Positions 3,536 to 59,387 of a stretch of 64,000 nucleotides of DNA are shown piece after piece (the stretch's first letter is position 1; the number at the start of each line of letters is the position of its first letter). The stretch comes from Ignavibacteriales bacterium. GTDB lineage: Bacteria > Bacteroidota > Ignavibacteria > Ignavibacteriales > Ignavibacteriaceae. Location: the NCBI GenBank assembly GCA_016714125.1, contig JADJNX010000006.1:111681-175680 (forward strand), written 5' to 3'. The translations under genes and the position numbers were made by a program. Under the pieces are notes generated by a model, which saw nothing but the letters and a program-made list of their open reading frames with translations, did not search any database and was not told the DNA's origin.

Positions 3536-3850
3536 GGAGGGATGGGATAGTTCCACGGATGCCACGGAATAGACACGGATGCTCGCGGAATTTTAGCGTT
3601 AGAGGCAGGAGTGGTAATCGTCCCGATTGCCATCAGTAAAATGCACAGCCGTTAGAGAAAAAGTTACACAGATATCACGGATTTTCACAGATACCACGGA
3701 TTTTTTAGGGGACGCAGATCCACCCCGGCGGACAATGTACACGCAGATTAGACAGATTTTCGCAGAGGGTTTTTTTATTTACATCACTGAAGTTCTGAGG
3801 TTCCGAAGCTCTGAAGTTCTAAAAAACTCAAGTACTAAGTACTCAGGTAG
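3536..3850. repeat. Copy of the modular interspersed repeat family, followed by octamer tandem repeats
   Basis: Contains CACGGAT/CGCGGAA-type degenerate units and the GGAGTGGTAATCGTCCCGATTGCC hairpin. Also carries GGGGACGCAGAT..ACACGCAGATTAGACAGATTTTCGCAGAG with an 18-nt insert. These are followed by (TGAAGTTC)-like x4 and CTCAAGTA-like x3. Confidence 0.8.
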
Positions 3851-3854
3851 TTCT

Positions 3855-5696
3855 CTACGGAATCAGCTCTTGCCTGAGTTGATTAATGTCGATGAAATCG
3901 GCCCAGTTGTCGAGGAGGGGGACGCCGGTGATTCTACCGCCAAAACCCATGAGGCGGTGAACAAACATTACAATACTTGAAGTTTTTAGATCTTTTAGTT
4001 CCGATTCAAACGCTTTTGCATTATACTTTTGAGCGAGACCCGTGGTTTTGTTTGAGAGGAATTTATTGAGCTTCTTTTTGGAAAGGTAGGTTCTTAATTG
4101 CTCTTTTGAACTTTCATATTCAAATTTCAGAGAGTCATTCATACTGCTTTTTTCAGTTACGAGAAGTAGAGAATAACCATCACCTCTTTTGATGGGTCCA
4201 TACAGTTGGTTCAAATCGAGTTTACTTGCGATAATTCCGATATCACCGAGGAAGACTGCGGGTTTAAGTCCCGTTTCTCCTTTTTCGTTGACGAGAGGAT
4301 CAGTTTTCCCTCGTGATTTTAATATTTCGCTAAAAGATTTTCCTTTTCCTGTCTCATTCAATACCACTTCAATTTCGTTAAGATCTTTAACGGTCAAGAG
4401 TTGAATGTTTACAAGAACAAAATCTTTATCCTTCAATACATCCTGTCTGTAATAATCTTCAATTTCGGAATCGCTCACTCTCGCAGAATCGAGAAAAGAG
4501 ACTTTCATAACCTGTGCAAGAAGGTTTTGTTTCCATGATTCCAGATCATCCGTAACAGATTTTAACGATTTTAACCCTTTTTTTTCTGCTTCAAAAGTGA
4601 GTATCTGTTGTTGAACAAAATCTTTTGCCAGTTTGCTTAGTCGTTTAAATACTTCGTTTTTTGATTGCGATTTAAATTCAGGTTCATCCAGGGCAAGGGA
4701 AGCGAGGAAATCAAAAACAGTTACAGGTCTTTCATCCACATTAAAGAGGGTGGTACCGGATTTATCATTTCTGATTGAAGTTCTCAACTTTTGATAATCG
4801 GTGGAAGTGAGGATATACTTAAATCCTGTTGAATCATTTTTTGCGGGCGGCGCAGCATAAATTATATCAAATATTTGACCGGCAACGAATTTAAAAGGCT
4901 CACTTTCGATATTAATTTTGTAGTCTGCGAGCAATCCACCCAGATACTCTTTCATTCTGTGGAGGGCGCGACGGTCTTTAACGGTTTGTTTGATTTTATC
5001 AACAACCTTGGAGTTGGCGATATCAACCGCCTGGAAAACAACATTATCGATATGAAAGATAATCCAACCATTTTCGCTGTTAATCGGTTGGGTCGATTTT
5101 CCGGGGGTGAGGGCAAAGACCGAGTCTTCAATCTCTTCATCTTGAAGTACTCCAAGTTTCAACTCCATAGGGATAACCTGGATTGAGGAATACTCAGGTA
5201 ACTTTATAAGAGAATCAAGCTTTTTGCCGGAGGACAAAGACAAATGGATTTGTTGGATTAAATCCCGGTTTGGAGATGAAAGAATCGAGGTTTTAATCGT
5301 TTTGGAAGCTTTTGACAGGGCATTATTAACATCCCCGGCACTCAGATTAATTTTACTATCCACTTCCATTTTAAAGAGGGCATCCCTGAGGAAAAGGTCT
5401 TCGAGGGGCTTAAAGTAGAAACGGAATTCTTCAGTTCTGTCGGCTCCCTGATCAACAGCTTCAAGGTACCAAAGTTTTTCTGCAATAAGGGAATAGAGAA
5501 AATCTGCCTTCAGAGAATCACGGTTCCACCCGTTTTTGTGCGACAGGAAGGGGGAAAGTTCAAATCGAGTCTTAAAATCTCTTTCCGTTATCGTGGATCC
5601 ACCAACGGTGGCAAGAATTTTTCCATCAGGCTGGGCAGAGATTACCGAAATAAACAACAGAAGACAAACAAAGGCTCTTTTAAACATCATTTCCAA
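3855..5696 (-). CDS. Periplasmic PpiD/SurA-like peptidyl-prolyl isomerase chaperone
   Basis: Signal peptide, SurA-like N-terminal region and parvulin-like segments (GWIIFHIDNV; GYSLLLVTEK). 613 aa. Confidence 0.6.
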   Translation of the reverse strand: MEMMFKRAFVCLLLFISVISAQPDGKILATVGGSTITERDFKTRFELSPFLSHKNGWNRDSLKADFLYSLIAEKLWYLEAVDQGADRTEEFRFYFKPLEDLFLRDALFKMEVDSKINLSAGDVNNALSKASKTIKTSILSSPNRDLIQQIHLSLSSGKKLDSLIKLPEYSSIQVIPMELKLGVLQDEEIEDSVFALTPGKSTQPINSENGWIIFHIDNVVFQAVDIANSKVVDKIKQTVKDRRALHRMKEYLGGLLADYKINIESEPFKFVAGQIFDIIYAAPPAKNDSTGFKYILTSTDYQKLRTSIRNDKSGTTLFNVDERPVTVFDFLASLALDEPEFKSQSKNEVFKRLSKLAKDFVQQQILTFEAEKKGLKSLKSVTDDLESWKQNLLAQVMKVSFLDSARVSDSEIEDYYRQDVLKDKDFVLVNIQLLTVKDLNEIEVVLNETGKGKSFSEILKSRGKTDPLVNEKGETGLKPAVFLGDIGIIASKLDLNQLYGPIKRGDGYSLLLVTEKSSMNDSLKFEYESSKEQLRTYLSKKKLNKFLSNKTTGLAQKYNAKAFESELKDLKTSSIVMFVHRLMGFGGRITGVPLLDNWADFIDINQLRQELIP

Positions 5697-5699
5697 AAA

Positions 5700-6904
5700 T
5701 TATAAACCAAGAGCCTTAAGATAATCAGAATTGATAATACAGTTTTTCAATTTGATATTTTCGAGATATTGCGCGAGGATGGTTTTGATCTTCGCCTGAT
5801 CGGGTTTGTTATCTCTGATATATCCATAAGAGACATCAAATTTATTCGAAAAGTTTATTATCAAGTCATAATCGCTTGGCGGCACGATTGAGGTTATTCC
5901 CCTTTCGCTGTTAAGTTTTTGTAAGGCCAAAAGCACCAGCCGATATTTTCCTTTTCGAGCATCGTACGGAATTCAGTTATCCATTCATTGGTGTTTTCAC
6001 CTGACTCACCCATCCAGATTGGCACCTGATACTTTTCACCAAAATCGATGTAGTCCTGCACCACATCCTTGGTTGCAGGGGTCCAGTATTTATGAAAAGT
6101 GTAAACCAGATTGTCATCAAACGGTTTCCCAAAAACTGAAAAATTGCTGTTCCACTGAGCACCGGCTATGAAGATAATATGATTTTTATCAACAGTTCTT
6201 ATTGCAGCAGTTAATCTCTTGAAAAAGGGTTCAAGCAGTGGATTCAATTTATCTTTGTCGAAGTAGTGGGCAATTGGTTCGTTGAGGAGGTCATAACCAA
6301 TAACTATTGGATCGTTTTTATAGGTATCCGCAAGTTTTGTCCAGATTCTGATCGTCAGATTTATGTTTTCTTCCGATTCAAAAAGGAAAGGATATCCATA
6401 ACTGTCGTCTATGTTGTCACCGGTTTGACCGCCGGGGGCGCAGTGCATATCGAGGACAACGGGGAGATCTTCTTCACGACACCACTTTACAGCGGAATCG
6501 AGAAGGGCGTAACCCGGACCCGTCAATTCCTGCTTTTCATCATCAGTAACAAAAAGCCGGTAATTAAAAGGTATTCTGATCGAGTTAAAACCACATTTTT
6601 TTAAAAACTTTATGTCTTCGCGAGTTGTGTAGTCAACTCTGAACTTGTTCCAAAATTTTTCTGCTTCACGCTCTCCCAAAAGGATATCAAAAAGATCATA
6701 GATGAGTCGGGGGGAGCTCACTTTTTCAAATTTAAACATGTATCCTTCAGGAACGAGCCAGTTTCCCAGCCCGATTCCTTTAAGAAGTACAGGTTTTCCC
6801 TGGGGATCGAGAATCTCTTTCCCCCTGGTAGAAAAGAATCCCTTTTGTTGGGGATGAATCAGTCCAACAGCAGAAACAAAAAGGAGAAGCCAGAGGTATC
6901 TCAT
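5700..6904 (-). CDS. Glycoside hydrolase family 5 (beta-glucanase), reading frame broken near 5918
   Basis: GIGLGNWLVPEGYMF, LLNEP and GESGEN motifs. ORF 5894-6904 stops at WPYKNLTAKGE. ORF 5700-5936 continues plausibly (..KLNSERGITSIVPP..) across an A5/T5 run. Confidence 0.7.
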
Positions 6905-28234: not shown

Positions 28235-30217
28235 TGAATTTATTTGTAAAAGTTCTCCCCCGGGTAGTATTAATGTTGGTTTTTGCAATGCCCCTTGCTG
28301 CCCAGGGATTTTTGAAAGTCTCCGGAAAAAATATTGTTAACGGCGTGGGACAAAATTATGTCCTCAAAGGTGTAGGCTTGGGCGGATGGCTGCTCCAGGA
28401 AGGATACATGCTTCATACTTCAGCCTTTGCAAATGCCCAATGGCAAATTAGAGCCAAAATCACTGATTTGATTGGTGAAACAAACACTGAAACCTTTTAC
28501 GAGACTTATCGAAACAATTATGTAAAAAAAGTTGATATTGATTCTCTTAAAGCTTGGGGTTTTAACTCAATACGGTTGCCGTTCCACTACAATCTTTTTG
28601 CCACTAACACAAATCCACCTGTCTTTTTGCAAAAGGTTTTGATTATACTGATTCACTCCTTGCATGGTGTAAAGCAAATCAGATCTATCTCATACTGGAT
28701 ATGCACGCAGCCCCGGTGGTCAGAGTAATGAACCGATAAGTGATTATAATCCTGCATTTCCTTCTTTATGGCAAAGTGAGCAGAATAAAGACCTCACTGT
28801 AAAAATCTGGCGTAAACTGGCAGAGAGATACAAAGATGAAGAATGGATCGGCGGATATGACCTGCTTAACGAGCCCAAATGGGACCTTGGAACTAACAAT
28901 GTTCCACTTCGCAATCTTTATATCAGACTCACTGACACTATTAGAGCTGTTGATACGAATCATATAATTTACATTGAAGGTAACTGGTTTGCAACCGATT
29001 TTTCAGGGTTAACACCTCCTTGGGATGCCAACCTGGTTTATAGTTTCCACAAATACTGGAACACAAACAACACCGGTTCAATTCAGTATCTGCTCGATCT
29101 TCGCAATAACTTTAACAGACCTTTATGGCTGGGTGAAACGGGTGAAAACTCAAATCAGTGGCTTTCAGATTTTGTGGAATTGATGCACAACAACAATATA
29201 GGCTGGGCTACCTGGCCTCACAAAAAAATTAAGTCAATTGCGGGACCTCTTTCAGCCACACTTTCGCCACTGTATCAGACACTTCTGAATTATTGGAATG
29301 GATCGGGATCGAGGCCAACTGCAACTTATGCTCAGGGTGCTCTGATGGCTCAGGCAAACGCACTTAAACTTGAGATGTGCACCTACAACAAAGATTATGT
29401 ATATGCTCTGTTGAAGCAACCATTTACAACCACTTCAATCCCGTTTGCAGAGAATCTGATTCCGGGAACGATCTACGCACCCAACTATGACATGGGAAAA
29501 CAGGGAGTCGCTTACTCGGACGTAGCTTATCAAAACACCAATAATGGAACTGCCTATAATTCCGGATACAACTACAGAAATGATGGTGTTGACATCGAAC
29601 AGTGCAGCGATTTTTCGTCGAACGGATATGATGTTGGTTGGATAGAAAATAATGAGTGGCTTGCTTATACCGTGCAGGTTCAGACGAGTGGTGTTTACAG
29701 TGCAGCTTTTAATGTTGCCGCTCAAAGTGCCGGTGGACAAATTTTTGTGTTGGTTGACGGACAAGGTTTAAGCATGGTTAATATCCCTGCAACTGGTGGC
29801 TGGCAGAACTGGCAGAATGTTATTCTGCAGAATATCAATCTTACAGCCGGAACTCATAAACTTACCCTACGGTTCTACAACGGCAGTTTTAACCTCAGCA
29901 ATATCGATTTTACTTTAATCTCTACCGATATTGAAGATGAGACTCAATTGCCCGTGGAATTTGCTCTGAGCCAAAACCATCCAAACCCGTTTAACCCCTC
30001 CACGATTGTTAAATATTCACTTCCTGTTGACGGATTTGTCAACATCAGTGTATATAATAATCTTGGTGAAAAGGTATCAGTTCTTGTTGATGGTGAAGTG
30101 AGTGCCGGGGAATATTCAGTTTCTTTTGATGCCGGAAATCTCCCGAGTGGAGTTTATTTCTGCAGAATGGAATCCGGAAATTTTATCTCCTCCCGCAAAA
30201 TGCTGCTGTTAAAATGA
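28235..30217 (+). CDS. GH5 glucanase with CBM6-like module and T9SS CTD; frame broken near 28625 and 28715
   Basis: Signal peptide MNLFVKVLPRVVLMLVFAMPLAAQG. GVGLGGWLLQEGYM, LLNEPKW and GETGEN motifs. CBM6-like GYDVGWIENNEWLAYTV. CTD NHPNPFNPSTIVKY. The breaks lie in a T5 run and a C4 run. Confidence 0.8.
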
Positions 30218-30291
30218 GTACCTGAGTACCTGAGTACCTGAGTGATTTTAGTATTGTGAATTAGCGTCACTCAAGTACTCAAGTACTCGAG
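30216..30291. repeat. Long imperfect hairpin built from inverted octamer tandem repeats
   Basis: (GAGTACCT)x3+GAGTG pairs with CACTCAAGTACTCAAGTACTC, giving 21 bp with two C-A mismatches and a 23-nt loop. It starts on the GH5 stop codon. Confidence 0.7.
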
Positions 30292-34532: not shown

Positions 34533-34568
34533 ACCACAATTTAAATCTAAACGGTTAAAATACACAAC

Positions 34569-34599
34569 AAAAAGGCTGCCAATTTTGGCAGCCTTTTTT
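34569..34599. terminator. Bidirectional rho-independent terminator
   Basis: AAAAGGCTGCC-AATTTT-GGCAGCCTTTTTT lies between convergent genes. Confidence 0.75.
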
Positions 34600-34621
34600 A
34601 ATATATAATCCCGACGGTTGG

Positions 34622-35168
34622 TTAGCTTTTTACTAACTGAACTTCGCACAACAGTTTAACATCTTCGCCAACAAGAACTCCACCTGTTTCGAGGGCGGCA
34701 TTCCAGGTTAGACCAAAATCTTTTCTGTTGATCTTTCCTGAGAGTGAAAATCCGGCTTTGATGTTTCCCCATGGATCTTTCATCAAACCGCTGTATTCAG
34801 CATCGAGGGTAATCTTTTTTTGTTACATCTTTAATTGTGAAGTCGCCTGATACCTTAAAGTTGTTTTCATCAACTTTTTCGATTTCTGTTGAAACAAATG
34901 AGAGTTTGGCGAAATTTTCAACATCAAAAAAGTCGGCACTTCTAAGGTGATTGTCTCTGTCAGTATTGCTTGTGTCGATTGAAGTTACATCTGCAATGAA
35001 GCTGATATTTGAAGATTCAAATTTATCATCTTCGTTTACAACTGTTGCTTCAAATGATTTAAATTTTCCGGAGACATTTGTAAACATCATATGTTTTACT
35101 TTGAATCCGATTTCTGAGTGTGTTGGGTCGATTGACCAGTTAGTTTTTGCCATTTTATTGTTCTCCAT
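34622..35168 (-). CDS. YceI-family polyisoprenoid-binding protein, frame broken near 34810
   Basis: WSIDPTHSEIGFKVKHMMFTNVSGKF motif. Reading an A7 run as A6 restores ..DVTKKITLDAEYSGLMKDPWGN..VQLVKS. Confidence 0.8.
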
Positions 35169-35185
35169 TATTTGATTTTAAAAAA

Positions 35186-35902
35186 TTAAACGATCATTGG
35201 TACTTCCATCAACAAGAGGGAAGTTTTTGATTCTGCTGTAAAAGAAACTTTATTTGTATCCCATAATCCAAGACCATCGCGTGTTGAAAGATCGTGTCCA
35301 TCAACGATTACATCACCATCAAGTACATATACATACAAACCATTTTCAGGCGACTTAAATTCATAATCAAGCGATTTCCCTTTTTCAAGATCGGACATAT
35401 GAAACCAGGCATTTTGATGTATCCATACTCCCTCATCTTCTGAAGACGGGGAAAGAATCTGCTGAAAACGATTTTTTCTGTCTTCTGTATTAAGGGTTAT
35501 TTGGTCATACCGGGGTGTAACACCTTTTTCATTAGGGAATATCCAGATTTGAAGAAATTTTACGGGACTGTCATCGTTTTTGTTGTATTCGCTGTGTTTA
35601 ATACCCGTACCTGCGCTCATCACCTGAATATCACCATTCCTGATAACTGTTGTATTCTCCATACTGTCTTTATGTTCAAGATCGCCTTCAAGAGGAATCG
35701 AGATGATTTCCATATTATCATGATGATGTGTGCCAAAGCCCATACCGGGGGCAACAATATCATCGTTGATGACCCGGATGGCTCCGAAGTGCATTCTTTC
35801 CGGATCGTAATAATTTGCAAAACTAAATGTGTGTCTGCTTTTTAACCAGCCATGGTTTGCATCACCTCTGGTGGAAGCTTTGTGCAATACTGTCTGTGTC
35901 AT
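35186..35902 (-). CDS. Pirin-family protein
   Basis: GFGTHHHDNMEIISIPLEGDLEHKDS cupin metal-binding motif; bicupin length. Confidence 0.85.
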   Translation of the reverse strand: MTQTVLHKASTRGDANHGWLKSRHTFSFANYYDPERMHFGAIRVINDDIVAPGMGFGTHHHDNMEIISIPLEGDLEHKDSMENTTVIRNGDIQVMSAGTGIKHSEYNKNDDSPVKFLQIWIFPNEKGVTPRYDQITLNTEDRKNRFQQILSPSSEDEGVWIHQNAWFHMSDLEKGKSLDYEFKSPENGLYVYVLDGDVIVDGHDLSTRDGLGLWDTNKVSFTAESKTSLLLMEVPMIV

Positions 35903-36002
35903 GATTTTGTGTCCGTTTTTTTCTAAATTTACTGTACAAAGTTACCTTACATACGCCCCCTTCCAATGAACCAGATTATGAAAAAAGGTTAAGGTAGGTT
36001 AA

Positions 36003-36140
36003 GAGGATGGTTACGCGGATTACACGGATTTTCACGGAGAGAGGGGACGCAGATACACGCAGATTAGACAGATTTTCGCGGAGGAATATCGTTAGTGACA
36101 GGAGCGACAATCGTCCTCGATTGTCATCTGAAAATGACAT
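36003..36140. repeat. Copy of the modular interspersed repeat family
   Basis: GGATGGTTACGCGGATTACACGGATTTTCACGGA, GGGGACGCAGATACACGCAGATTAGACAGATTTTCGCGGAG and the GACAATCG-TCCT-CGATTGTC hairpin. Confidence 0.8.
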
Positions 36141-36161
36141 AAATTTTGGATATCGGAGATA

Positions 36162-36761
36162 TTACTTTTTTCGGAGGGATTCGTTTCTGACTTTGGAGAG
36201 GAATTCGGGGGTGATGCCGAGGAACTGCGCTATTTGTTTTTGGGGGAGGGTATTAATTAATGTGGGATATACCTGACAAAATTTTCCGTAACGTTCCTTG
36301 GCTGTCAGGCTCATGTTGTCTAAAAGTCGTCGATGGCTGTTGACGAGGGAGTTTTCGGTAATGATTCTGAAATATCTTTCGAGAGTTGGAACTTCATCAA
36401 AAAGATCAAGTTGATCCACTCGTGTAAGAAGTAAAACTTCCGTGTCTTCCACGGCGTTGATGTTCAAATAACTCTCTTTTTCAGAAATAAAACTGTACAT
36501 GTCAGTTATCCACCAGTTGGCAGGAGCAAATTGTAGGATGTGTTCAAAGCCGTTTTCATCGATGGAATATGAACGGAGGCAACCTGAAACCACAAATGCA
36601 GCAGACTTCGCAATCTGACCCTCATGAAGGTAAAACTGTTTCCGTTTAATCACTTTTCGGGTTAATCTCGAAAAAATCTTCTCTTCGTCTTCAGGCGAAA
36701 GTTCAGTATGCCTTTTGATTCCTTCAAAAAGTTTTTCTGCTTTTTCTTTCATCTCTTCCAT
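36162..36761 (-). CDS. Crp/Fnr-family transcriptional regulator
   Basis: cNMP-binding beta-roll followed by a C-terminal HTH (QKQIAQFLGITPEFLSKVR). Confidence 0.8.
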   Translation of the reverse strand: MEEMKEKAEKLFEGIKRHTELSPEDEEKIFSRLTRKVIKRKQFYLHEGQIAKSAAFVVSGCLRSYSIDENGFEHILQFAPANWWITDMYSFISEKESYLNINAVEDTEVLLLTRVDQLDLFDEVPTLERYFRIITENSLVNSHRRLLDNMSLTAKERYGKFCQVYPTLINTLPQKQIAQFLGITPEFLSKVRNESLRKK

Positions 36762-36881
36762 GCAAACTCTTTATTTACTTGACAGGCAAAGATGCTGAAA
36801 ATTGTAAAATAAACAATGGGAAACAAAGACGATTTCTTTTTATTTTTGACTGAACATTTAAATATTTATTCAGAGATCATT

Positions 36882-37910
36882 ATGTTTGAAAAAATTGACC
36901 GCCTGCATTTTGCAAATCTTCCCACACCTCTTGAACCTGCTGAAAAACTTGCCGCCCATCTTGGACTAAAATCATTCCTTTTTAAGAGGGACGACATGAC
37001 GGGGCTTGCGATGGGGGGTAATAAAGCCAGAAAACTTGAGTTTGAACTCGCAAGTGTTGTTGCCGGTGGGTATGACACCATAATTACAGTTGGAGGTCAA
37101 CAGTCGAACCATGCAAGAATGACTGCGGCTGCCTGCCGAAAACTTGGAATTGATATTAAACTGGTACTTGGAGGAAAGGATTTTACCGAATTTAAGGGGA
37201 ATCTGCTTCTCGACACTCTTTTTGGAGCTGATATCAGATATATTTCCGGGAGTGATGAGGATGATGACCTTGAGGCACTTCAGAAGAAATGGTTTGATGA
37301 ATTGGCAGAAGAAGGGAAAAAACCGTATTCACTTCCTTTGGGAGGGTCAACTCCACTTGGGACACTTGGGTATGTGGTAGCCATGGAAGAGCTGAAAAGT
37401 CAACTTCCGGATGACAAGGTACAGATATTTTGTGCAGTGGGTTCGTGTGGGACTCTTGCGGGAGCGGTTTTGGGAGCTGCCCTGTTTTTGCCAAATGCAA
37501 AGGTATATGGAATCAGTGTTTCCCGAACAAAAGAGGACATTTATAAAAGGACAAGGGAATTGATCAGAGAAAGTGCCAAATTGATCGATGCCGATCCTGA
37601 CCTGTCAGAGACAGAGTTTTTTGTTTATGACTGTTACCACGAAGAGTATGCCAAACATATCAAAATAGCCATGGATGCCGGAGAAGTTTGTGCAAGACTT
37701 GAAGGGATGATAATTGATCAGGTTTATACCGGAAAAGCAATGGCGGGACTTTTTGATCTTGCAAAAACAGGTGTTTTAAACAAAGAAGAACCCGTAATAT
37801 TCCTTCATACAGGTGGAATGCCGGAGGTGTTTTCTGATACACTAAAGTTTGGAGAGTACAAAAAATGCAGAAAATACAGTGTTGAAGAGGTTCAGGAGAT
37901 GAAAAAATGA
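36882..37910 (+). CDS. PLP-dependent D-cysteine desulfhydrase / ACC deaminase family enzyme
   Basis: GGNKARKLEFELA and GGQQSNHARMTAAAC motifs. The start was chosen at MFEKIDRLHF; the ORF track begins at 36816. Confidence 0.8.
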   Translation: MFEKIDRLHFANLPTPLEPAEKLAAHLGLKSFLFKRDDMTGLAMGGNKARKLEFELASVVAGGYDTIITVGGQQSNHARMTAAACRKLGIDIKLVLGGKDFTEFKGNLLLDTLFGADIRYISGSDEDDDLEALQKKWFDELAEEGKKPYSLPLGGSTPLGTLGYVVAMEELKSQLPDDKVQIFCAVGSCGTLAGAVLGAALFLPNAKVYGISVSRTKEDIYKRTRELIRESAKLIDADPDLSETEFFVYDCYHEEYAKHIKIAMDAGEVCARLEGMIIDQVYTGKAMAGLFDLAKTGVLNKEEPVIFLHTGGMPEVFSDTLKFGEYKKCRKYSVEEVQEMKK

Positions 37911-39018
37911 TGAAGCTGTTTCATCCCGATTTCCGCAAAATTCTATTTATTTTTATTGCTTTGTGGGTTGGTGGTTTTGTTGTCAGGGACAGGATGTCAA
38001 ATCCACGGACGAGATAATCACCAAAGTTGACAGTTTGATCCCTGCGCTTCAGGCAAAGTTTAATGTCCCCGGGGTTTCGTATGTTATCCTCAAAGATTAT
38101 GAGATGGTATATTCCCGCAGTTTTGGAGTAAAGGATGTACGCACTAACGAACCCGTGACGGATGAAACAATGTTTGAAGCTTGTTCCATGTCAAAACCGG
38201 TGTTCGCTTACCTGGCGATGAAACAGGTTGAGTCGGGTAATCTTCGACTTGATTCGCCAGTCTGGACTATTTTTGACGATCCCGCATTTCAGGGGCAGGA
38301 ACTTAGGAAAAAAATCACAACAAGAATGTTGCTTTCCCATACTTCAGGATTGCCAAACTGGCGTCCGGGAGATGATGAAGAGAATGGTTATATCCCCATT
38401 GAGTTTGAGCCGGGCTCAAAGTTTGGTTACTCAGGCGAGGGGATGTATTACCTGCAAAAAGTTGTGGAGAAAATAACGGGCAAGTCGCTTGAGGTGTTGG
38501 CAAAAGAAATCCTTTTTGACCGAAATTTTATGAAGAACTCAAGTTTTGTGTATTCAGCGGAGTTTGAAGGGAATCTGGCTGCAGGTCACGACACCCTTGG
38601 GAATTTCAATAAAAAAACCTCCTATTCCAGAGCGAATGCCGGTTTTTCACTCTATTGTTCGGCAATCGACTATGCCTTGTTTTTACTCGATGTCATGGCA
38701 CTCGACCGTAAGGGTGGAGATGCTCTTTCAGCAGAGTTCATCGATCAGATGTTAACACCACAAATAAAAGTTACAACCCGGGAACCCCAGATTCGACCCG
38801 GGAAAGCAAACGGGATTGATATTTTCCGTGGACTCGGTTGGGTGATCGATTCAACCCTTGAGGGTGATATCTGTTATCACAGTGGAGCCAATGGCTCCGG
38901 TTTTAGATGTTACAGCCAATTTAACCGAAAGAAGGGTTCGGGCATTGTGATTATGACCAATGGTGCCGGGGGCTTCGGAGTTTGGGATGCGATTGTCCGG
39001 GAAGTTGGAGATCTTTAG
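37907..39018 (+). CDS. Serine hydrolase (beta-lactamase/transpeptidase-like), probable frame break near 37975
   Basis: S-x-x-K motif (CSMSKPVFAY). The signal-peptide-like MMKLFHPDFRKILFIFIALWVGGF from ATG 37907 is in a different frame from the main ORF (37963-39018). Confidence 0.7.
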
Positions 39019-39084
39019 ATTAATCCAATAATCCAATAATATGAAAACCGTAAGAGAAAGGGGACTGCAAGCCGAAGGCATCCC

Positions 39085-39245
39085 TTTGGGAGATTAGGCG
39101 GATTACCGCGGATGATTTTTGACGAAGGCTCTCAAAATTTCCTCGAAGAGGAATAAATATTCGTAGCATAATTGTCATCATCAACCTCGAATACCCCGTT
39201 TGCGGGGTTTAATATTCACAGACCCCGATTACCGTCACTGCCAAA
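39085..39245. repeat. Copy of the modular interspersed repeat family, inverted relative to the 43.2-kb copy
   Basis: The reverse complement reads AACCCCGCAAACGGGGTA...GCTACGAATATTTATTCCTCTTCGAGGAAATTTTGAG. This matches 43203-43285 module by module. Confidence 0.7.
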
Positions 39246-39280
39246 AATATTAAGTCCTCCAAAATGTCATTTTTCCCTCT

Positions 39281-39943
39281 TTATTTAACTTGTTCAGAAC
39301 TATCAGGACTTAGTAAAATATGTGGATTTCTATTAAAATAGTCATTGAATACAAATACTGCAAGGAAGATATATGCGATAAATCCCACAACAATAACCAG
39401 TTGAACCGAGGATGTTTTCTGAATCTCCTGTTTTGATTTTACATCACAAACTTCACCAGGGCAGTACTGAGCTTTTCCTTTATAAAACATTGAATAAAAT
39501 TTGCAGCCCAGACAAATACCAAACGCAGTTTCCAAGAATAAAAATATAAGGCAAATCAAACATACAATACCGGTAAGAGGGCTGGGTATATTTAATACCG
39601 CTATACTTATGAAAACTATTGCGGCCAAAACTAAACCAATTATCCATGCAAATTTTTTTTGCTGAGCACCAACATATTCGGGCACTTGGTTCCTAACTAT
39701 CAAGCGACCAATTATTAAAAAAGGAGAAAATTTGGGATTGATAACTACACGTATCAGAATATCTGTTAAAAATATTGTAATAGCATACTTTAGAAGTAGA
39801 AAATCCCCTTTAAGAATAACTACCATAATTGAGATAAACATCATTAAAAATAATATTCCCGCTGCAGCTCTTATTTCCCTTTCATTTAAAACAGGAATGT
39901 CGTATCCTTCAACATCTTCTCCAAAGTAAATTATTTTATTCAT
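39281..39943 (-). CDS. DUF4395-like integral membrane protein
   Basis: Four or more TM helices and a C-terminal ETAFGICLGCKFY motif. The family name is recalled from memory. Confidence 0.5.
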   Translation of the reverse strand: MNKIIYFGEDVEGYDIPVLNEREIRAAAGILFLMMFISIMVVILKGDFLLLKYAITIFLTDILIRVVINPKFSPFLIIGRLIVRNQVPEYVGAQQKKFAWIIGLVLAAIVFISIAVLNIPSPLTGIVCLICLIFLFLETAFGICLGCKFYSMFYKGKAQYCPGEVCDVKSKQEIQKTSSVQLVIVVGFIAYIFLAVFVFNDYFNRNPHILLSPDSSEQVK

Positions 39944-40278
39944 TAGATTTTTTCCTTCTTTTTTTAAATTTCTCGATATCGATGAAAATATATTTGATCC
40001 AGGTTGATTATAGATTTCATTATCCGATGCAAAAATATGTAATTAATTAAAAATTTAAACAAAAGATCAACATACGGCAAGTTATGGTGAACCAACGGCA
40101 ATTAGACGTTTTGAAAAAAAATCTACTTTAAAATTTTCTGATTGGCATTGTGTAAATTTCAGTTGAGGTTTATTACCTTTCAAAAGAATTTTGTTTGTGT
40201 TTCAGCAAACATTTGAAGTAACTCTTCTTACGGAGCTTGTAATATTAGATGTCTTCTTCTTGTGAAAAAAGGGGAAGG

Positions 40279-40317
40279 CCCCCCCTTTTTTTTTTTTCCG
40301 TATTTTTTTTTTTTTTT
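40279..40317. repeat. Extreme homopolymer tract C7-T12-CCGTA-T15
   Basis: Read directly from the sequence. Preceded by AAAAAAGGGGAAGG, which can pair with the C/T runs. Confidence 0.9.
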
Positions 40318-40431
40318 CTTAATTTTGAGATCTTAATTTTTCGATTTTACCTTTTAAGTTTGTTGCAAGTTCTCAAGTTGCATATCTACAACAATAATTG
40401 TACATTTAAGTAATTAATCTCAGGTATTTTT

Positions 40432-40761
40432 GTGAAACGGTTTAGCCGGACGCTTGTACTTTATGTCTATATGTTCACCACGCTTTTGTCTATGGCTGGT
40501 GGAACCGGAATAGGTACGTCCTCCATCGTTTCCTTTAAGGCCAGAGGGATTGACCCCAAAGCCCACTACTTCACTTCCTTAAAAATCCCCAAACATATAT
40601 CCCCCGTTTCTCATACGACAATCGATATTCATGATGTTTGGGAAATTGTTGATATTAATAATGTCCCCGGATTTGAAGAAATTGTCATTTCAGAGCCGAC
40701 CGGAAATTACTCAACACCGTCAGTTCAACTTCCCACGAACAAGGCTCCGCCCACCATATAA
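40432..40761 (+). CDS. Hypothetical small secreted protein (GTG start)
   Basis: The ORF has an N-terminal hydrophobic segment. No family recognised. Confidence 0.3.
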   Translation: MKRFSRTLVLYVYMFTTLLSMAGGTGIGTSSIVSFKARGIDPKAHYFTSLKIPKHISPVSHTTIDIHDVWEIVDINNVPGFEEIVISEPTGNYSTPSVQLPTNKAPPTI

Positions 40762-40877
40762 TTCATCACCTTTATTCTATTATTCATGCAGCAAATAACA
40801 GATGCCGCCTAATGTGTTCATCACACATTTGGTGTTGTGTTTGTATTTATTCAATTGATATTTAAAGAGAGAATTAT

Positions 40878-40988
40878 ATGGAAAGCAAAGAAAAAAAAGA
40901 AAGTGCATCATTTTACGGAATGATCATGTTTATAACTCTGATAGTGGGTACAGTAGCCCTGCTGTTAAAGTTCATCATCGGTTTCTGA
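40878..40988 (+). CDS. 36-aa single-TM mini-protein (below ORF-track cut-off)
   Basis: MESKEKKESASFYGMIMFITLIVGTVALLLKFIIGF, with an AAAGAGAG Shine-Dalgarno-like purine run 8 nt upstream. Confidence 0.35.
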   Translation: MESKEKKESASFYGMIMFITLIVGTVALLLKFIIGF

Positions 40989-41009
40989 TTTTGCGGAAGA
41001 TGATTTTTT

Positions 41010-41135
41010 ATGGAAACACCCGCAATTATTACCATGGCAATCGCCTGGACCGTGATAATATCGTTTCTCGTTTATTTCCTTCGGAAAGCAGTTAAAACCC
41101 AGAAAAAGGGTGACGATGCAATCTCAGAGGAATAA
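41010..41135 (+). CDS. 41-aa single-TM mini-protein (below ORF-track cut-off)
   Basis: METPAIITMAIAWTVIISFLVYFLRKAVKTQKKGDDAISEE, followed by a terminator at 41174. Confidence 0.4.
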   Translation: METPAIITMAIAWTVIISFLVYFLRKAVKTQKKGDDAISEE

Positions 41136-41173
41136 TTCATTTATGTAAATGATGACTAAATCGTTTAAAATAA

Positions 41174-41209
41174 AAAGTGCGAATTCACTAAAGGTTCGCA
41201 CTTTTTTTT
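41174..41209 (+). terminator. Rho-independent terminator
   Basis: AAGTGCGAA-loop-TTCGCACTT stem followed by a T8 run. Confidence 0.7.
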
Positions 41210-41307
41210 GCTGGAAATCAAACTACTTGGAATTATTTAGCTTTCAAAAGCTGAAAATAATATGTTTATAACTTCCACATTCTCCCCAAATTTATAATTT
41301 TTCGATT

Positions 41308-41342
41308 ATAACCATATTTTATGCTTTGATATTTATGGTTAT
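41308..41342. promoter_or_regulatory. Inverted repeat ATAACCAT-N19-ATGGTTAT; candidate operator of the XRE/Fic pair
   Basis: 8-bp arms lie 40-75 nt upstream of the HTH gene start. Confidence 0.3.
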
Positions 41343-41381
41343 TACCATAACTTTGTAAGTTAAATATATGGATATACCCAA

Positions 41382-41846
41382 ATGAACAATGATAATCGAA
41401 GATTGTTGCTTGAACAACTCGACAGGAAGTTGGAGAGTTTTACTCCGGTTCGCAACCTGGAGGTGCCCTCAGAGGGTTGGATAAAGACTGTTCGAACTGC
41501 CCTCAACATGTCTCTGGCTCAACTGGCAAGAAGAATGAAAAAAACTCCGGCTACCGTAAAAGAGATGGAGACCCGCGAAAAGGATGGGGGAATTACTCTC
41601 AATAAACTTGCAGAAGCGGCGGATGCTCTCGAGTGCCGGGTTTTCTACACATTTATTCCCAAGGAAAGAACTTTTGATGATATTATCGAACAACGTGCGT
41701 TAAAACTTGCTAAAGAGATAATTATCCGCACATCCCAGACCATGGAACTTGAGAATCAGGCAAACAACTCAGAACGGAACCGGAATGCTCTTCTCCAAAG
41801 AAAAGAGAGAATTAAATATGAAATGCCGAGGTCTCTGTGGGATTAA
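41382..41846 (+). CDS. XRE-type HTH protein ('mobile mystery protein A' type)
   Basis: HTH GWIKTVRTALNMSLAQLARRM. Overlaps the downstream Fic gene by 10 nt. Confidence 0.75.
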   Translation: MNNDNRRLLLEQLDRKLESFTPVRNLEVPSEGWIKTVRTALNMSLAQLARRMKKTPATVKEMETREKDGGITLNKLAEAADALECRVFYTFIPKERTFDDIIEQRALKLAKEIIIRTSQTMELENQANNSERNRNALLQRKERIKYEMPRSLWD

Positions 41847-42433
41847 ATATTGATTATGAAGATGGTCAAACACCTCTCGACGAGGATGAAAAAGAAGGGT
41901 TGAAAATTCCAGGGATTACTACTCGGGGTGAGCTTGATGAATTTGAACAAGTTGGTGTGGAAAACGCAATTGCATCTTTATCAAAACAAAAAATATCACC
42001 TGAAATAATTCTTACTGAGGATTTTTTAATAGATCTGCACATTAAAATGTTTGGGAGTATATGGAAGTGGGCGGGAGAATTTCGTAAAACCAACAAAAAT
42101 ATCGGTGTTGACAAATATTATATCGGTATCGAAATCAAAAACCTTCTCGAAGATTGTCAATTTTGGGTAAATCATAAAACATTTCCAGACGATGAAATTG
42201 CAGTAAGAGTCAGCCACCGGCTCGTATGGATTCATCCATTTGCAAACGGTAATGGGAGGCATTCAAGGCTCTATGCTGATATCCTTGTAAGCAATGGCTT
42301 CAGTCGACCTGTTTTCTCGTGGGGCAGTAAGAACTTGATCAAAAAGGGAGAAGCCCGGTCTGCTTATCTCTCAGCATTAAGGCAGGCAGATATTCAGGAT
42401 TATTCAGCTTTAGTAAGATTTGCGAGATCATAG
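41837..42433 (+). CDS. Fic-domain protein ('mobile mystery protein B' type)
   Basis: Fic motif HPFANGNGRHSR. Confidence 0.85.
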   Translation: MGLNIDYEDGQTPLDEDEKEGLKIPGITTRGELDEFEQVGVENAIASLSKQKISPEIILTEDFLIDLHIKMFGSIWKWAGEFRKTNKNIGVDKYYIGIEIKNLLEDCQFWVNHKTFPDDEIAVRVSHRLVWIHPFANGNGRHSRLYADILVSNGFSRPVFSWGSKNLIKKGEARSAYLSALRQADIQDYSALVRFARS

Positions 42434-42556
42434 ACTTGAAAAAGTGTTTTGACTAGGCTGTACAAAGTTTTGTGTAAATAGTTAGTGAGATACATACCAT
42501 TCACTACCAAAGATGTCATAGATATTTCATTGTCATAGTTCAGATGACATAGTCCC

Positions 42557-43159: not shown

Positions 43160-43505
43160 TGTGGATGGTTCACCATGGTTGGGCAAATAAGTTTCTAATT
43201 TAACCCCGCACACGGGGTAAGGGTAATTTGGAGATTCAGCATAGCTACGAATATGAATTCCGTGTCGCGGAAAATCTTTGAGTTTTTTCGTTTTGCAGAG
43301 GGCAATCGGGACGCTACGAATATATATTCCCCACTGGGGAAAATCTCTGAATTATATCAATTTGCAGAGGGCAATCGGGACGATTACCACTCCTCACCCT
43401 TACGCCTAAGATCCGTGGACTCCGCGTAACCATCCCCATCTGCGAAACTCTGTTTAATCTGCGTGTATCTGCGTCCCCTAAATTCCATGGAACTATTCCC
43501 CCTGA
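43160..43505. repeat. Largest copy of the modular interspersed repeat family, including a 69-bp tandem duplication
   Basis: CCCCGCACACGGGG hairpin. Two 69-nt units (43244-43312, 43313-43381) each end in GCAGAGGGCAATCGGGAC. Reverse-oriented GGGGACGCAGATACACGCAGATTAAACAGAG module at 43455-43495. Confidence 0.8.
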
Positions 43506-43561
43506 ATATTGTTGTATTTTTACCGCTATCGCCAATTATTCAGTAAAGAAAACCGATCAAA

Positions 43562-44196
43562 ATGATTATTACCAGTAAAAATATGTTAGAGTTCGAAAAG
43601 CTCTACAGAACCAATTTTGTCAACTCGTTGAGTGGATTTAAGAGTGCAAACTTGATCGGCACAGTTTCATCTGAGGGCAAAACAAATCTGGCGATATTTA
43701 GTTCTGTAATTCATGTTGGTGCAAATCCACCGGCGATTGGCTTTTTGATGCGTCCCGTTAAAGTTGAAAGAGATACATATAAGAACATAAAAGAGACGGG
43801 TTTCTTTACGGTTAACCATATAGATAAGGCAATACACAAACAAGCTCATCAAACAGCGGCAAGATTTAGCAGCGATGTTTCGGAATTTGATGAATGTGGA
43901 TTTACTCCTGAGTATTCCGAGCACATAAAGGCACCTTATGTTAGAGAATCAAAGATAAAATTGGTTGCCGATTTGTTGAAGAGCAAGAAATCAAATTTAA
44001 CGGAACTGTTTTTATGGTTGGAGAAATTATTGAAGTAATCCTCCCCGATAATTTGGTTCTGGAAGACGGTTTCATTGAAATTGAAAAGGCAGGGACAATA
44101 ACAATCAGCGGATTGGATAGTTATCATGAAACAACAAAAATTGGTCGCCTTTCATATTTCCAAGCCCGGGACAAAAGCGAAAGAATTATGATATGA
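43562..44196 (+). CDS. Flavin reductase-like (FMN-binding split barrel) protein, frame broken near 44000
   Basis: The flavin-reductase domain pattern (..GKTNLAIFSSVIHVGANPPAIGFLMRP..) is split over ORFs 43562-44038 and 44014-44196. Confidence 0.65.
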
Positions 44197-44436
44197 AGGA
44201 TTTTTTCCATTGTAGACATCTCTCGAATAATTGAAATGGCCTGGGAAGACCGCACTCCATTTGAAGCACTCGAAATTCAATTTGGATTAAAAGAAAATGA
44301 TGTGAGGGAGATAATGAGAAGAGAAATGAAATCTTCAAGTTTTAGGATGTGGCGTGAGCGGGTAGGTGGTAGAAAAACAAAACATCTTTCTCTCCGCTCA
44401 GATGACATAAACCGATTTAAGAGTAAAAATCAGTAG
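44193..44436 (+). CDS. DUF2805 / TIGR03643-family small protein, probable frame break in a T6 run near 44203
   Basis: IIEMAWEDRTPFEALEIQFGLKENDV core. ATG 44193 joins the main ORF (44236-44436) if T6 is read as T5. Confidence 0.6.
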
Positions 44437-44460
44437 TTTTGTTAGAGAAGCCCAAATTGT

Positions 44461-47925: not shown

Positions 47926-48115
47926 TTAAATTCAAATATATTTAACAATAATTATTATAGAAATGAATCGGGAGCGCTATCACGGAATTTAAAACAAAAA
48001 ACCCGCCACAAGGACGGGTAATTTTGTCGGCTCCGTCCCGATTCCTCGGGAAACCTGTGCCAACCCTTCGGTTAACAGCCGTCCCGACCAGTCGGGAGAG
48101 CTATCACGGAATTTA

Positions 48116-48142
48116 AAACAAAAAACCCGCCACAAGGACGGG
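48116..48142 (-). terminator. Terminator downstream of tRNA-Asn, duplicated at about 47990-48017
   Basis: Minus strand reads CCCGTCCTTGTGGCGGG followed by TTTTTTGTTTT. Confidence 0.55.
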
Positions 48143-48154
48143 TAATTTTGTCGG

Positions 48155-48226
48155 CTCCGCGAGCAGGACTCGAACTTGCAACCCTTCGGTTAACAGCCGA
48201 ATGCTCCACCATTGAGCTATCGCGGA
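48155..48226 (-). tRNA. tRNA-Asn (anticodon GTT)
   Basis: Manual fold: acceptor TCCGCGA/TCGCGGA, D stem GCTC/GAGC, anticodon stem TTCGG/CCGAA with loop CTGTTAA, T loop TTCGAGT. One A-C mismatch in the T stem. CCA is not encoded. Confidence 0.85.
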
Positions 48227-48496
48227 ATGTTTTGCTTCTTTAACAGTCGTCCCGATTCATCGGGAGAGCTATCTAGGAATGTTTTCATTTTAAAAGTTTT
48301 TCACAAAACAATTTCAAAATGAGCTACAAATATAAGCAAATTTCATATTGCTGTCAATAACAATTTAAAAAATTAAATTATTTTTCATTAGTCTTGTAAA
48401 TCTCCCTAAAAATAGAGAAATTCAATTGTGGTTTTGAGATATTATTTTTCTCACCGCAGATAGTTAAGCTCGTTTAAAAATTAACAGGATTTCAAT

Positions 48497-57524: not shown

Positions 57525-59291
57525 ATGGAATTTAAGTTAAGAACACATAATTGTGGTGAGTTACGGGAGAGCAATATTGGCGAAAAGGTTGTGCTAAACG
57601 GCTGGACAGCAGTGAGAAGAGACCTCGGTGGGGTTATTTTTATTGATCTGCGCGACAGGTTTGGTATCACCCAGGTGGTTTTTGAGCATACTTTTAATGC
57701 AGATTCTCATGAACAGGCAAAAGAGTTAAGATCAGAATTTGTAATTTCCATCGAAGGAACCGTCAGGAAAAGACCTGAAGGTACTGAGAATGATGCCTTG
57801 CCAACAGGGAAAGTGGATATAATGGTTGACAAATTATCGATTCTGAATCGCGCAAAAACTCCTCCCTTCCCAATTGAAGATGAGATTGATGTACATGAAG
57901 AGCTTAGACTAAAATATCGCTACCTTGATCTTCGTCGTCCTTCTATGCAGAAGAATATGCTTCTTCGCCACAGAATGTATCAGGTTGTGAGAAGTTTCTT
58001 CGACACTAACAATTTTGTTGAGATTGAAACACCGATTTTGATGAAATCCACCCCTGAAGGGGCGAGGGATTTCCTTGTACCAAGCAGAATGCATAAAGGG
58101 AAGTTTTATGCTCTGCCACAGTCTCCTCAACAATATAAACAGATATTAATGGTAGCCGGTTACGATCGCTACTTCCAGATTGTAAAATGTTTCAGAGATG
58201 AAGATCTTCGAGCTGACAGACAGTTGGAATTTACCCAGATAGATGTTGAGATGTCGTTCATCAACCAGGATTTTGTTTTTTCAACTTTTGAAAAACTGAT
58301 GAAGGTTCTCTACAAAGAGATTTGGGGAAAAGAGTTGGAAACCCCAATTCCACGCCTCACATTTGAGGAAGCGATGACATGGTATGGCTCTGATAAACCC
58401 GATTTAAGATTTGATCTCAAAATGTCAACTTTAAACGGAGTTTTTGCAAATACCGAATTTAGAGTTTTCAAAGATACAATTGAAACTAAAGGAATTATCA
58501 CCGGACTTGTTGCTCCGGGTTGTGGCGACTATACCAGGAATCAGCTTGATGTGCTTACCGACTTTATCAAAAAACAGGGTGCGGGTGGGCTCATCTGGAT
58601 TCGTGTGAAAGAAGACGGGCTCGAATCTCCAACCATGAAATTTTTCACGGATGAAGAAAAAGTTGCCATGGTGGAAGAACTTGGTGCAAAACCGGGTGAT
58701 TTGATCCTGATCCTGAGTGGTAAAAAATATAAAACCCTCGGATTGATGGGTAACATTCGTCTTGAGATGTCGAGAAGATTAAATCTGGTTACGGAAGAGA
58801 CAGAACCAAAACTTCTTTGGGTTAAAGATTTCCCACTTTTTGAATGGGATGAAGAGACCAACAGATATTACGCTATGCATCATCCCTTCACTTCCCCCAA
58901 CATGGAGGATTTGGCATTGATGGATACCAATCCTGCAGAAGTCAGGGCTCAGGCGTATGATTTGGTTCTTAATGGTAACGAAATTGCCGGCGGAAGTATC
59001 AGAATTCATGATTCATAGTTACAAGCCAAAATGTTTAAAACACTTGGATTCACTGAAGAAGATGCAAAAGAGAAGTTTGGTTTCCTTATGGGAGCTTTTC
59101 AATATGGAGCGCCTCCTCATGGTGGAATCGCTTTCGGTTTTGACAGACTCTGTATGATTTTCTGCGGAGAAAAATCGATCCGTGAAGTAATTGCATTCCC
59201 CAAAACTGCAAATGCCATCTCACTTATGGATGACAATCCATCTCTCGTCTCCGACGAGCAGTTGAAAGAACTGCATCTCAGAATAAGATAA
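57525..59291 (+). CDS. aspS: Aspartate-tRNA ligase, interrupted by an in-frame TAG at 59016-59018
   Basis: Class II motifs ([17 protein letters not shown]; GGSIRIH; [15 protein letters not shown]). ORFs 57525-59018 and 59031-59291 are in the same frame. Confidence 0.9.
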
Positions 59292-59345: not shown

Positions 59346-59387
59346 AGGGGACGCAGATACACGCAGATTAGGAGGATTTTCGCGGAG
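59346..59387. repeat. Solo module of the interspersed repeat family
   Basis: AGGGGACGCAGATACACGCAGATTAGGAGGATTTTCGCGGAG. Confidence 0.75.

Follow-up and report, generated by a model that had tools for sequence, protein, structure and literature searches.

Repetitive extragenic palindromes (REPs) are recognized by REP-associated tyrosine transposases (RAYTs) as a single-stranded hairpin plus tag, as are the right ends of IS200/IS605 insertion sequences by TnpA. In Neisseria, the regions formed by neisserial intergenic mosaic elements (NIMEs) tend to adjoin variable genes. To our knowledge, NIME mosaics and those of REPs and bacterial interspersed mosaic elements (BIMEs) have been characterized almost exclusively in Proteobacteria. 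Di Nocera et al. sorted REPs into GTAG- and CGTC-tagged superfamilies and mentioned the Neisseria mosaic regions, NIMEs being RS units punctuated by dRS3, a CGTC-tagged palindrome (PMC3733652), and the REP consensus sequences of Nunvar et al. carry GTAG directly 5′ of the stem (PMC2817692). Here, we examined a 64,000-nt stretch of an Ignavibacteriales contig (JADJNX010000006.1; hereafter, the window), in which a first-pass annotation had proposed a modular repeat family at five loci (A–E) composed of four modules, (a) to (d). The loci were checked by reading each of them and by an unbiased repeat search, and all five, with the modules claimed for them, were borne out on re-reading. We regard these loci as very likely to be repeat-DNA mosaics of the BIME/NIME kind. 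More specifically, it is probable that module (c) is a REP-like unit and that the family is a bacterial intergenic repeat mosaic, in which several unrelated short non-coding families share the same sites in one Ignavibacteriales clade.

Module (c) is a 5–7-bp hairpin of variable sequence, the foot of which lies exactly 3 nt before a constant tag, AT(A/G)TTCGTAGC. Its 5′ arm is pyrimidine-rich and its 3′ arm purine-rich (170 C-G or T-A stem pairs vs 30 G-C or A-T pairs), and units follow one another head to tail in arrays that repeat every 49–57 nt. The window holds four units and the related loci approximately 40, all of them intergenic. In a test anchored on the tag sequence alone, and independent of the covariance model described below, a stem of at least 5 bp ended exactly 3 nt 5′ of the tag in 19 of 33 unique tags, compared with 5% of random positions; counted by tag-to-stem gap, there were 19 stems at 3 nt, 15 at 4 nt, and 0–6 at other gaps. 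No fewer than 12 distinct stems are represented. Nine units were used to build a covariance model, which retrieved 44, and in the alignment of these 44, which is fitted to that model, 96.3% of cells were paired and five of the six pairs had changed on both sides. Cells with a double change numbered 60, against 0–13 when the partner position was slid, and none of 500 shuffles gave a value as high. The proposal that a hairpin is kept by compensatory change therefore holds for this one module. Collectively, the fixed distance from hairpin to tag and the strand asymmetry of the arms suggest strand-specific recognition of module (c) in single-stranded form.

The second component of the mosaics is a decamer array. 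Modules (a) and (d) had been listed separately, and we corrected this, as both are CRCRGAT arrays with a period of ~10 nt: module (a) is itself four CRCRGAT units frozen in sequence, which makes the two one kind of module. The (d) units are real and periodic, with a start-to-start spacing of 9–11 nt in 68 of 104 neighboring CRCRGAT pairs, and about half of the decamer units read CRCAGAT instead of CRCGGAT. Module (a) has no internal pairing. It is present in the four copies claimed, at 36043–36083, 59347–59387 (three mismatches relative to the reference copy), 43438–43478 (−), and 3708–3767, where zero matches are expected in shuffled window sequence. The copy at 3708 does carry an insert, as had been noted, of 19 nt (3720–3738) rather than 18 nt; the orthologous long form of the relatives has 18 nt. 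This long form is also found in related sequences L001, L015–L019, L028, and L051. Small hairpins sometimes sit between decamer units or replace them, one being the 18–19-nt GC-rich insert after unit 1 of module (a). Modules beyond the original four include the double mini-hairpin GCCGAAGGCATCCCTTYGGGAG (39071–39092), present in nine independent contexts, the sequence GTCCCGATTGCCnTCTGCAAAA directly after (c) tags, and GAAGTTCTGA-type arrays (3787–3850).

Two further arrays were seen outside the five loci. At window positions 30215–30288, directly 3′ of a gene for a protein with a type IX secretion system (T9SS) tail, (TGAGTACC)x3.6 and (ACTCAAGT)x2.5 are mutually inverted and are related to the GAAGTTCTGA/CTCAAGTAC arrays found at mosaic edges (3787–3850; L001 7100–7170; L008). 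On L082, an Ignavibacterium album-like contig, a short CRCAGAT array at 330–420 is followed by its inverted complement, so such decamer units may predate the mosaic family.

Module (b) spans ~60 nt and is conserved in sequence around an 8-bp palindrome. Its hairpin lies at 3613–3631 (+) and 43370–43388 (−), with the variant GACAATCG-TCCT-CGATTGTC at 36106–36125, and its 3′ half, GTCCCGATTGCCnTCTGCAAAA, is also the sequence that follows (c) tags without the 5′ arm. The covariation reported between copies of (b) reduces to a single event. RNAalifold returned the 8-bp hairpin only, with one compensatory pair limited to locus B and its orthologs, while ~20 other copies are unchanged, and a metagenomic variant (GGCAATCG..CGATTACC) has a C-A mismatch on the module strand. 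We conclude from these three observations that (b) is conserved in sequence and not merely in pairing.

The arrangement of the modules at the five loci is as follows.
Locus A, 3542–3592 (+): array head (GGGATAGTTCCACGGAT) and CRCGGAW units, module (d); Tandem Repeats Finder period 9 at 3553–3582.
Locus A, 3593–3660 (+): module (b), the ~60-nt conserved block; hairpin GGTAATCG-TCC-CGATTGCC at 3613–3631.
Locus A, 3663–3706 (+): second CRCRGAT decamer array; repeat family D7, period 19 being two units.
Locus A, 3708–3767 (+): module (a), long form, with the 19-nt GC-rich mini-hairpin insert at 3720–3738.
Locus A, 3787–3850 (+): degenerate GAAGTTCTGA / CTCAAGTAC arrays (module f).
Locus B, 36003–36042 (+): array head and CRCGGAT units, one 11-nt unit fewer than in relatives.
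Locus B, 36043–36083 (+): module (a), reference copy, 95% identical to the L015 ortholog.
Locus B, 36084–36137 (+): module (b) variant; hairpin GACAATCG-TCCT-CGATTGTC at 36106–36125.
Locus C, 39060–39115 (+): module (a) variant, GGGGAC, then the double mini-hairpin GCCGAAGGCATCCCTTTGGGAG, then CRCGGAT units.
Locus C, 39139–39167 (+): (c) unit, TTCCTC-GAA-GAGGAA, 3 nt, tag ATATTCGTAGC; the best covariance-model match, at 47.1 bits.
Locus C, 39195–39247 (+): decayed (c) unit, ACCCCG-TTTG-CGGGGT, 3 nt, ATATTCACAGA, followed by a decayed GTCCCGATTGCC block.
Locus D, 43190–43232 (−): third (c) unit (ACCCCGTGTGCGGGGT), its tag decayed here but intact (ATATTCATAGC) in L015–L019.
Locus D, 43244–43312 (−): 69-nt unit of GTCCCGATTGCC block, hairpin TTCCG-CGACA-CGGAA, and tag; repeat family D5.
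Locus D, 43313–43358 (−): (c) unit, TTCCCC-AGT-GGGGAA and tag, 91% identical to its ortholog.
Locus D, 43359–43409 (−): module (b); hairpin at 43370–43388.
Locus D, 43410–43437 (−): array head and two CRCGGAK units, with four units in relatives.
Locus D, 43438–43478 (−): module (a), short form; the orthologs have the long form.
Locus D, 43479–43505 (−): array head GGGAATAGTTCCATGGA, bordering the gene-content difference at 43506–44460.
Locus E, 59347–59387 (+): module (a) standing alone, with the aspS terminator on one side and rmuC on the other.
The (c) tags of the window lie at 43244–43254 (−), 43313–43323 (−), and 39157–39167 (+), with a degenerate copy at 39212–39222. Cf. the module f arrays of locus A, the ortholog of locus C in L001 contains (AAGTTCTCA)x9. 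Locus D is inverted, as first described, and it is the sole inverted locus of the five; locus C, also described as inverted, begins with its (a) variant at 39060 (+) and is oriented like A, B, and E.

We then considered how the mosaics sit among genes. None of the 42 mosaics in the window and related loci falls within a long open reading frame (ORF), in agreement with the first-pass description of all copies as intergenic. In the window, this follows from the flanking ORFs being ordinary genes with Pfam domains: these encode an FAD oxidoreductase, a PPIase-domain protein, a pirin, a cNMP-binding regulator, and a beta-lactamase-fold protein, as well as DUF4395, DUF6992, flavin reductase, AspRS, and RmuC. 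The ORFs that run over the mosaics are spurious, as had been suspected, and a coding reading is rejected because orthologous copies differ by indels (11, 18, 22, and 69 nt) that include non-triplet lengths. Mosaic density in the window is ~1 per 13 kb. All modules lie on one strand in 39 of 42 mosaics, and (c) arrays stand at the 3′ end of (a) and (b), while the order of (a), (b), and (d) varies. Relative to flanking genes, orientation showed no significant bias (20 of 32, p=0.2), with loci A and B antisense to both neighboring genes. Distances to start codons range from 16 to >400 nt, and in some cases (locus C; L003, L006, L007) the copy sits where two genes converge. Replication strand was rejected as the cause of the co-orientation, since D runs counter to B and C within 7 kb, and L008 has two inverted mosaics ~500 nt apart.

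Two related sequences have genes bracketed by repeats. In L008 (5800–6790), two inverted mosaics bracket a 118-aa ORF without Pfam domains (6106–6462, −); the arrangement is that expected of a REP-associated gene, and the 118-aa protein is unlike a transposase. In L003 (4350–6460), an AAA_14/DUF4143 ATPase gene (4697–6187) is bracketed by a direct repeat of ~370 nt comprising a whole (b)-(a)-(d) mosaic and non-module upstream sequence, which points to a cassette or to duplication of the segment.

The family extends beyond the window and was also found in Ignavibacteriales genomes and metagenomes. Among 185,579 species genomes, an exact 25-mer of module (a) occurred at 13 places in three Ignavibacteriales/Ignavibacteriaceae metagenome-assembled genomes (MAGs). 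L001 is syntenic with window positions 34566–41200 at 89% identity, and the DUF6992 protein led to six more orthologous stretches, L015–L019 at 87–90% identity and L020 at ~81%. Mosaics occupy the same sites as loci B, C, and D in the 87–90% relatives. They persist in place across 10–19% genome divergence, and change takes the form of gain or loss of whole units. Locus B differs from its relatives by one 11-nt decamer and locus D by the 18-nt insert of (a) and two decamers; the 69-nt unit of locus D is present in the window only and absent from the orthologous mosaic of the relatives, with the indel exactly at the tag. Similarly, the paralogous arrays of L006 and L009 are one 55-nt unit apart, bounded by tags. 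Locus C differs in its set of modules and by a 1.3-kb gene-containing difference, and L020 retains only module (a) at site D, upstream of the DUF6992 gene. Identity between orthologs was 83–95% for modules, 91–94% for genes, and 58–71% for some other spacer DNA; the excess of modules over spacer is mild evidence of constraint. No mosaics were found in ~20 kb each of the I. album-like sequences L082, L083, and L084, and the (a), (b), and (d) vocabulary is therefore confined to a narrow clade.

Compared with L015–L019, gene content differs at 39040–40366 (DUF4395 gene), 41208–42555 (two genes), and 43506–44460 (flavin reductase gene). In L017 and L018, an AlbA_2/ArsA-like pair takes the place of the two-gene segment. 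Two of the three differences adjoin mosaics and the third does not. The window is homopolymer-rich at 40286–40326 (C8 T12 .. T18), adjoining the locus C indel, and this may be an assembly weak point.

Scanning metagenomes for two tags 38–62 nt apart yielded 60 loci, of which ~11 were of Ignavibacteria type with (a), (b), and (d). A second group, of ~50% GC, carries GCCCCATCGGGGC-GAT-ATATTCGTAGC in 26- or 49-nt periods with the same 3-nt spacing and without (a), (b), or (d). These Chitinophagaceae-like contigs are L023, L025, L040, L068, L074, and L080. In L023, the 26-nt unit GCCCCATCGGGGC-GAT-ATATTCGTAGC is repeated at least six times with no spacers, and L040, L068, and L080 also contain convergent pairs with truncated tags. 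A protein on one ~50% GC contig is 76–87% identical to GH3 proteins, and the named matches are mostly from Chitinophagaceae and Sphingobacteriales. The remaining two-tag metagenome matches had no hairpin, and their number was close to chance. Viral contigs gave 52 two-tag loci, again about the chance number, all of which are coding or other tandem repeats that lack the hairpin-tag architecture. No (c) units were present in 21 kb of GCA_044223995.1 (Bacteroidota), which is related to L080 by one protein (87%). Separately, a single module (a) with decamers lies at 2663–2738 of the IMG/VR contig L014, between two co-directional, ordinary-looking genes, and may be host DNA or a prophage edge.

Searches for known families and partners were largely negative. 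Proteins of window genes, looked up by exact sequence, were absent from the records. In the window, only tRNA-Asn exceeded its Rfam gathering score; over locus D and the L009 array, relaxing the E-value to 10 returned nothing credible. Plasmid and phage records gave no match to locus D by distant BLAST, and a literature text search for the tag string retrieved primers only, with no description. The repeat search found no terminal inverted repeats at mosaic ends. For Y1/RAYT enzymes, phmmer on six-frame ORFs of the window and loci (~630 kb) found none, a weak test with E. coli RayT and IS608 TnpA as seeds. No sigma-70 promoter was found at locus D. A sigma-54 promoter was also considered, with TGGCATGTTCGTAGCA resembling TGGCACG-N4-TTGCW, and was rejected, only the ATG-type subfamily with a GGC spacer fitting.

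Other features of the window lie near locus E or apart from the mosaics. The aspartyl-tRNA synthetase gene (57525–59291) contains an in-frame TAG at 59016–59018, in the conserved catalytic core, and this may reflect a sequencing error, pseudogenization, or recoding. A tRNA-Asn(GTT) gene at 48153–48226 (−) stands amid same-strand tRNA-like partial copies (47948–48280): one nearly full (48030–48112) and two 5′ halves (48240–48280 and ~47960–47990), with TCCCGA..TCGGGA hairpins in place of the D and T arms. The same terminator-like hairpin is found 3′ of both the full tRNA-like copy and tRNA-Asn, and the 5′ tRNA-like copy is conserved beside tRNA-Asn in the 81% relative L020. The copies were uncalled by ARAGORN, and the Rfam tRNA model gave no match to them at E-values up to 10. 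A link to module (b) through GTCCCGATT was judged a coincidence, with only 10–11 bases shared.

What is observed directly is the anatomy and polarity of the mosaics, that they persist at their sites, and that they change by whole units at tags and decamers. As for mechanism, module (c) would be recognized as a single-stranded hairpin plus tag by a strand-specific enzyme or binding protein, and such recognition would seed new sites. A seeded site would probably be remodeled mainly by slippage and by ectopic recombination between the short punctuation sequences, processes that would preserve orientation and explain whole-unit indels. Where a mosaic lies downstream of a gene, its (c) hairpins would be transcribed as stem-loops of the 3′ untranslated region (3′-UTR) and may act as weak terminators or decay barriers. 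Unit turnover by slippage or recombination is, in our judgment, the likelier course of events; a dedicated hairpin-recognizing enzyme is a tentative proposal, and we lean against it.

Several results weigh against this interpretation. No transposase or other candidate enzyme was found in the ~630 kb, and all-against-all BLASTP identified no recurrent neighbor genes except abundant T9SS-tail proteins. There was no new mosaic site in ~20 kb at ~11% divergence, which fits slow turnover or no mobility, and among the relatives compared, no site was both filled and truly empty, which leaves transposition itself a hypothesis. The variety of hairpins in module (c) is far above that of classical single-RAYT REP families. 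Its G-T pairs (8) and C-A pairs (5) do not discriminate selection at the RNA level from selection at the DNA level. Of 17 arrays with (c), 12 follow a co-directional gene, which is not significant (p=0.14), and a 3′-UTR role is therefore no more than possible. Finally, (a) and (b) are conserved between orthologs, which could reflect a host function left unspecified by a repeat-mosaic reading.

That conservation is the point of departure for the main rival, in which the mosaics are regulatory or architectural platforms: CRCRGAT units about one helical turn apart and the (b) palindrome AATCG-N3-CGATT would be operators in duplex DNA, bound by a direct-repeat response-regulator-type factor, a dimeric helix-turn-helix protein, or a nucleoid or partition protein. 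The 9–11-nt period fits this account, and changes in unit number (11 and 22 nt) keep helical phase. Modules (a) and (b) are conserved in sequence beyond pairing, orthologous copies are as conserved as genes, and even the 81% relative has kept (a) upstream of the DUF6992 gene; orientation independent of transcription also suits a role at the DNA level. Because of the sequence-level conservation of (a) and (b), this rival stays alive. However, the flanking genes are functionally unrelated, start codons lie anywhere from 16 to >400 nt away, some copies are placed where genes converge, CRCAGAT replaces CRCGGAT in about half of the units, ~1 mosaic per 13 kb is high for a regulon, and no candidate protein was identified. 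On balance, we think it unlikely that binding arrays account for the mosaics.

The first-pass annotation had favored a structured REP/MITE-like or small-RNA element over drift. Genuine dispersed modular repeats, and not drift, are what we found, while neither the small-RNA part nor the part concerning miniature inverted-repeat transposable elements (MITEs) stood. On an RNA account, the transcribed hairpins of (b), (c), and the mini-hairpins would be small RNAs, 3′-UTR stabilizers, terminators, or a sponge for a GGA-binding protein. The compensatory variation in (c) stems is strong, G-U is tolerated (a T-G pair in (b) and eight cells in (c)), and several loops are GGA, with GGAU contained in the units. 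Two (c) hairpins of locus D fit a simple, loose terminator pattern, with a TTGATATTC-like tail and no U-run, and the 12 of 17 (c) arrays downstream of a co-directional gene lean the same way. Yet C-A cells (5) are nearly as frequent as G-U cells (8), (b) offers one compensatory event and one pair-breaking variant, and (a) lacks internal pairing. There is no consensus structure beyond single hairpins and no Rfam match at E-values up to 10, orientation is without significant bias (20 of 32, p=0.2), and loci A and B are antisense to both neighbors. A structured RNA family is therefore improbable. Classical MITEs, deletion derivatives of insertion sequences moved whole by a DDE transposase, would be small, intergenic, and multicopy, as the mosaics are. 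Nevertheless, the mosaics have no terminal inverted repeats, their modules all being direct and co-oriented, and they have no fixed length or ends, with different content at every site. What differs between orthologous sites is internal units, rather than whether a whole element is there, and there is no plasmid or phage similarity. We consider this explanation very improbable.

A repeat-DNA mosaic therefore remains the reading to be set against described systems. Like REPs and BIMEs, the elements here are short extragenic palindromes in high copy with an unpaired conserved tag (PMC3733652, PMC2817692), and they share clustered arrays, mosaics with other motifs, compensatory stem variation, and a mostly intergenic position, often downstream of genes. 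The GTAG resemblance to REPs pointed out in the first-pass annotation is superficial, because canonical REPs have GTAG immediately 5′ of the stem. Here, the 11-nt (c) tag is located 3′ of the hairpin, its GTAG being 9 nt away from the foot, and the other strand reads CTAC 5′ of the hairpin. REPs within BIMEs are regularly spaced in alternating orientation, whereas (c) units run head to tail, their stems are far more diverse within one genome, and nothing in them corresponds to the decamer arrays and 60-nt block. The ~630 kb searched yielded no RAYT gene. NIMEs are alike in being large intergenic mosaics of 50–150-nt units with short constant punctuation and several families interleaved (PMC3733652), and the adjoining of two of three gene-content differences to mosaics is a further likeness. 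Unlike in NIMEs, a direct 11-nt tag that follows a hairpin provides the punctuation here, in place of the 20-bp dRS3 inverted repeat, and there is no sequence similarity. CGTC-tagged REPs and dRS3 are defined by an unpaired CGTC, an 8–9-bp stem starting with AT, a 4–5-nt loop, and a CCA tail (PMC3733652). In contrast, the CGTC of module (b) straddles stem and loop (AATCG-TCC-CGATT) with a loop of 3 nt, and module (c) is without CGTC.

Beyond these, the BOX elements of Streptococcus pneumoniae, boxA-(boxB)n-boxC, are modular, polar, and intergenic with a variable number of internal units. The mosaics here are likewise modular, polar, and intergenic with variable internal units, but in BOX the A-B-C order is fixed and the ends are complementary, while here the order varies and only (c) is consistently 3′. 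Short tandemly repeated repetitive (STRR) heptamers of heterocystous cyanobacteria are lineage-specific short tandem units at many intergenic sites; the units here differ in having seven conserved and about three variable nucleotides, a period of 9–11 nt, degeneracy, and a place within larger mosaics. Right ends of IS200/IS605 elements also have a subterminal hairpin followed, ~10–14 nt on, by a short conserved end sequence, and insertion beside the tag sequence in that style would regenerate the target and explain head-to-tail arrays. Unlike those elements, there is one hairpin per unit, no left end, and no TnpA/TnpB gene nearby. CRISPR loci are also unlike the arrays, in which the stretches between tags are repeated families, neighboring hairpins differ, and only 11 nt are constant.

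In practical terms, the mosaics yield spurious ORFs and are likely to break short-read assemblies, and since they coincide with gene-content differences between close relatives, they matter for MAG annotation and binning. Their interest comes chiefly from the hairpin-tag unit shared with Chitinophagaceae, which points to a recognizing protein. If it is true that an enzyme or binding protein recognizes the hairpin plus tag, this would be a new mobile or structural DNA family in the Fibrobacteres-Chlorobi-Bacteroidetes (FCB) group. Taken further, the hairpin, 3 nt, and AT(A/G)TTCGTAGC might be a third tagged-palindrome superfamily beside the GTAG and CGTC REPs, in Ignavibacteriota and Bacteroidota (Chitinophagaceae), with a strand-specific enzyme inserting units beside the tag to give head-to-tail arrays, and the Ignavibacteriales arrays having recruited decamers and the 60-nt block, selected as platforms for host proteins. 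This is a speculative extension that we think is probably not correct in full. Overall, the mosaics work like REP/BIME or NIME but miss a defining feature of each, and the hairpin-tag unit common to Ignavibacteriota and Bacteroidota appears to be undescribed. An uncultured Ignavibacteriales lineage holds a repeat system comparable to these, with an anatomy of its own: one-way polarity, a hairpin coupled to a 3′ tag, and ~10-nt arrays.

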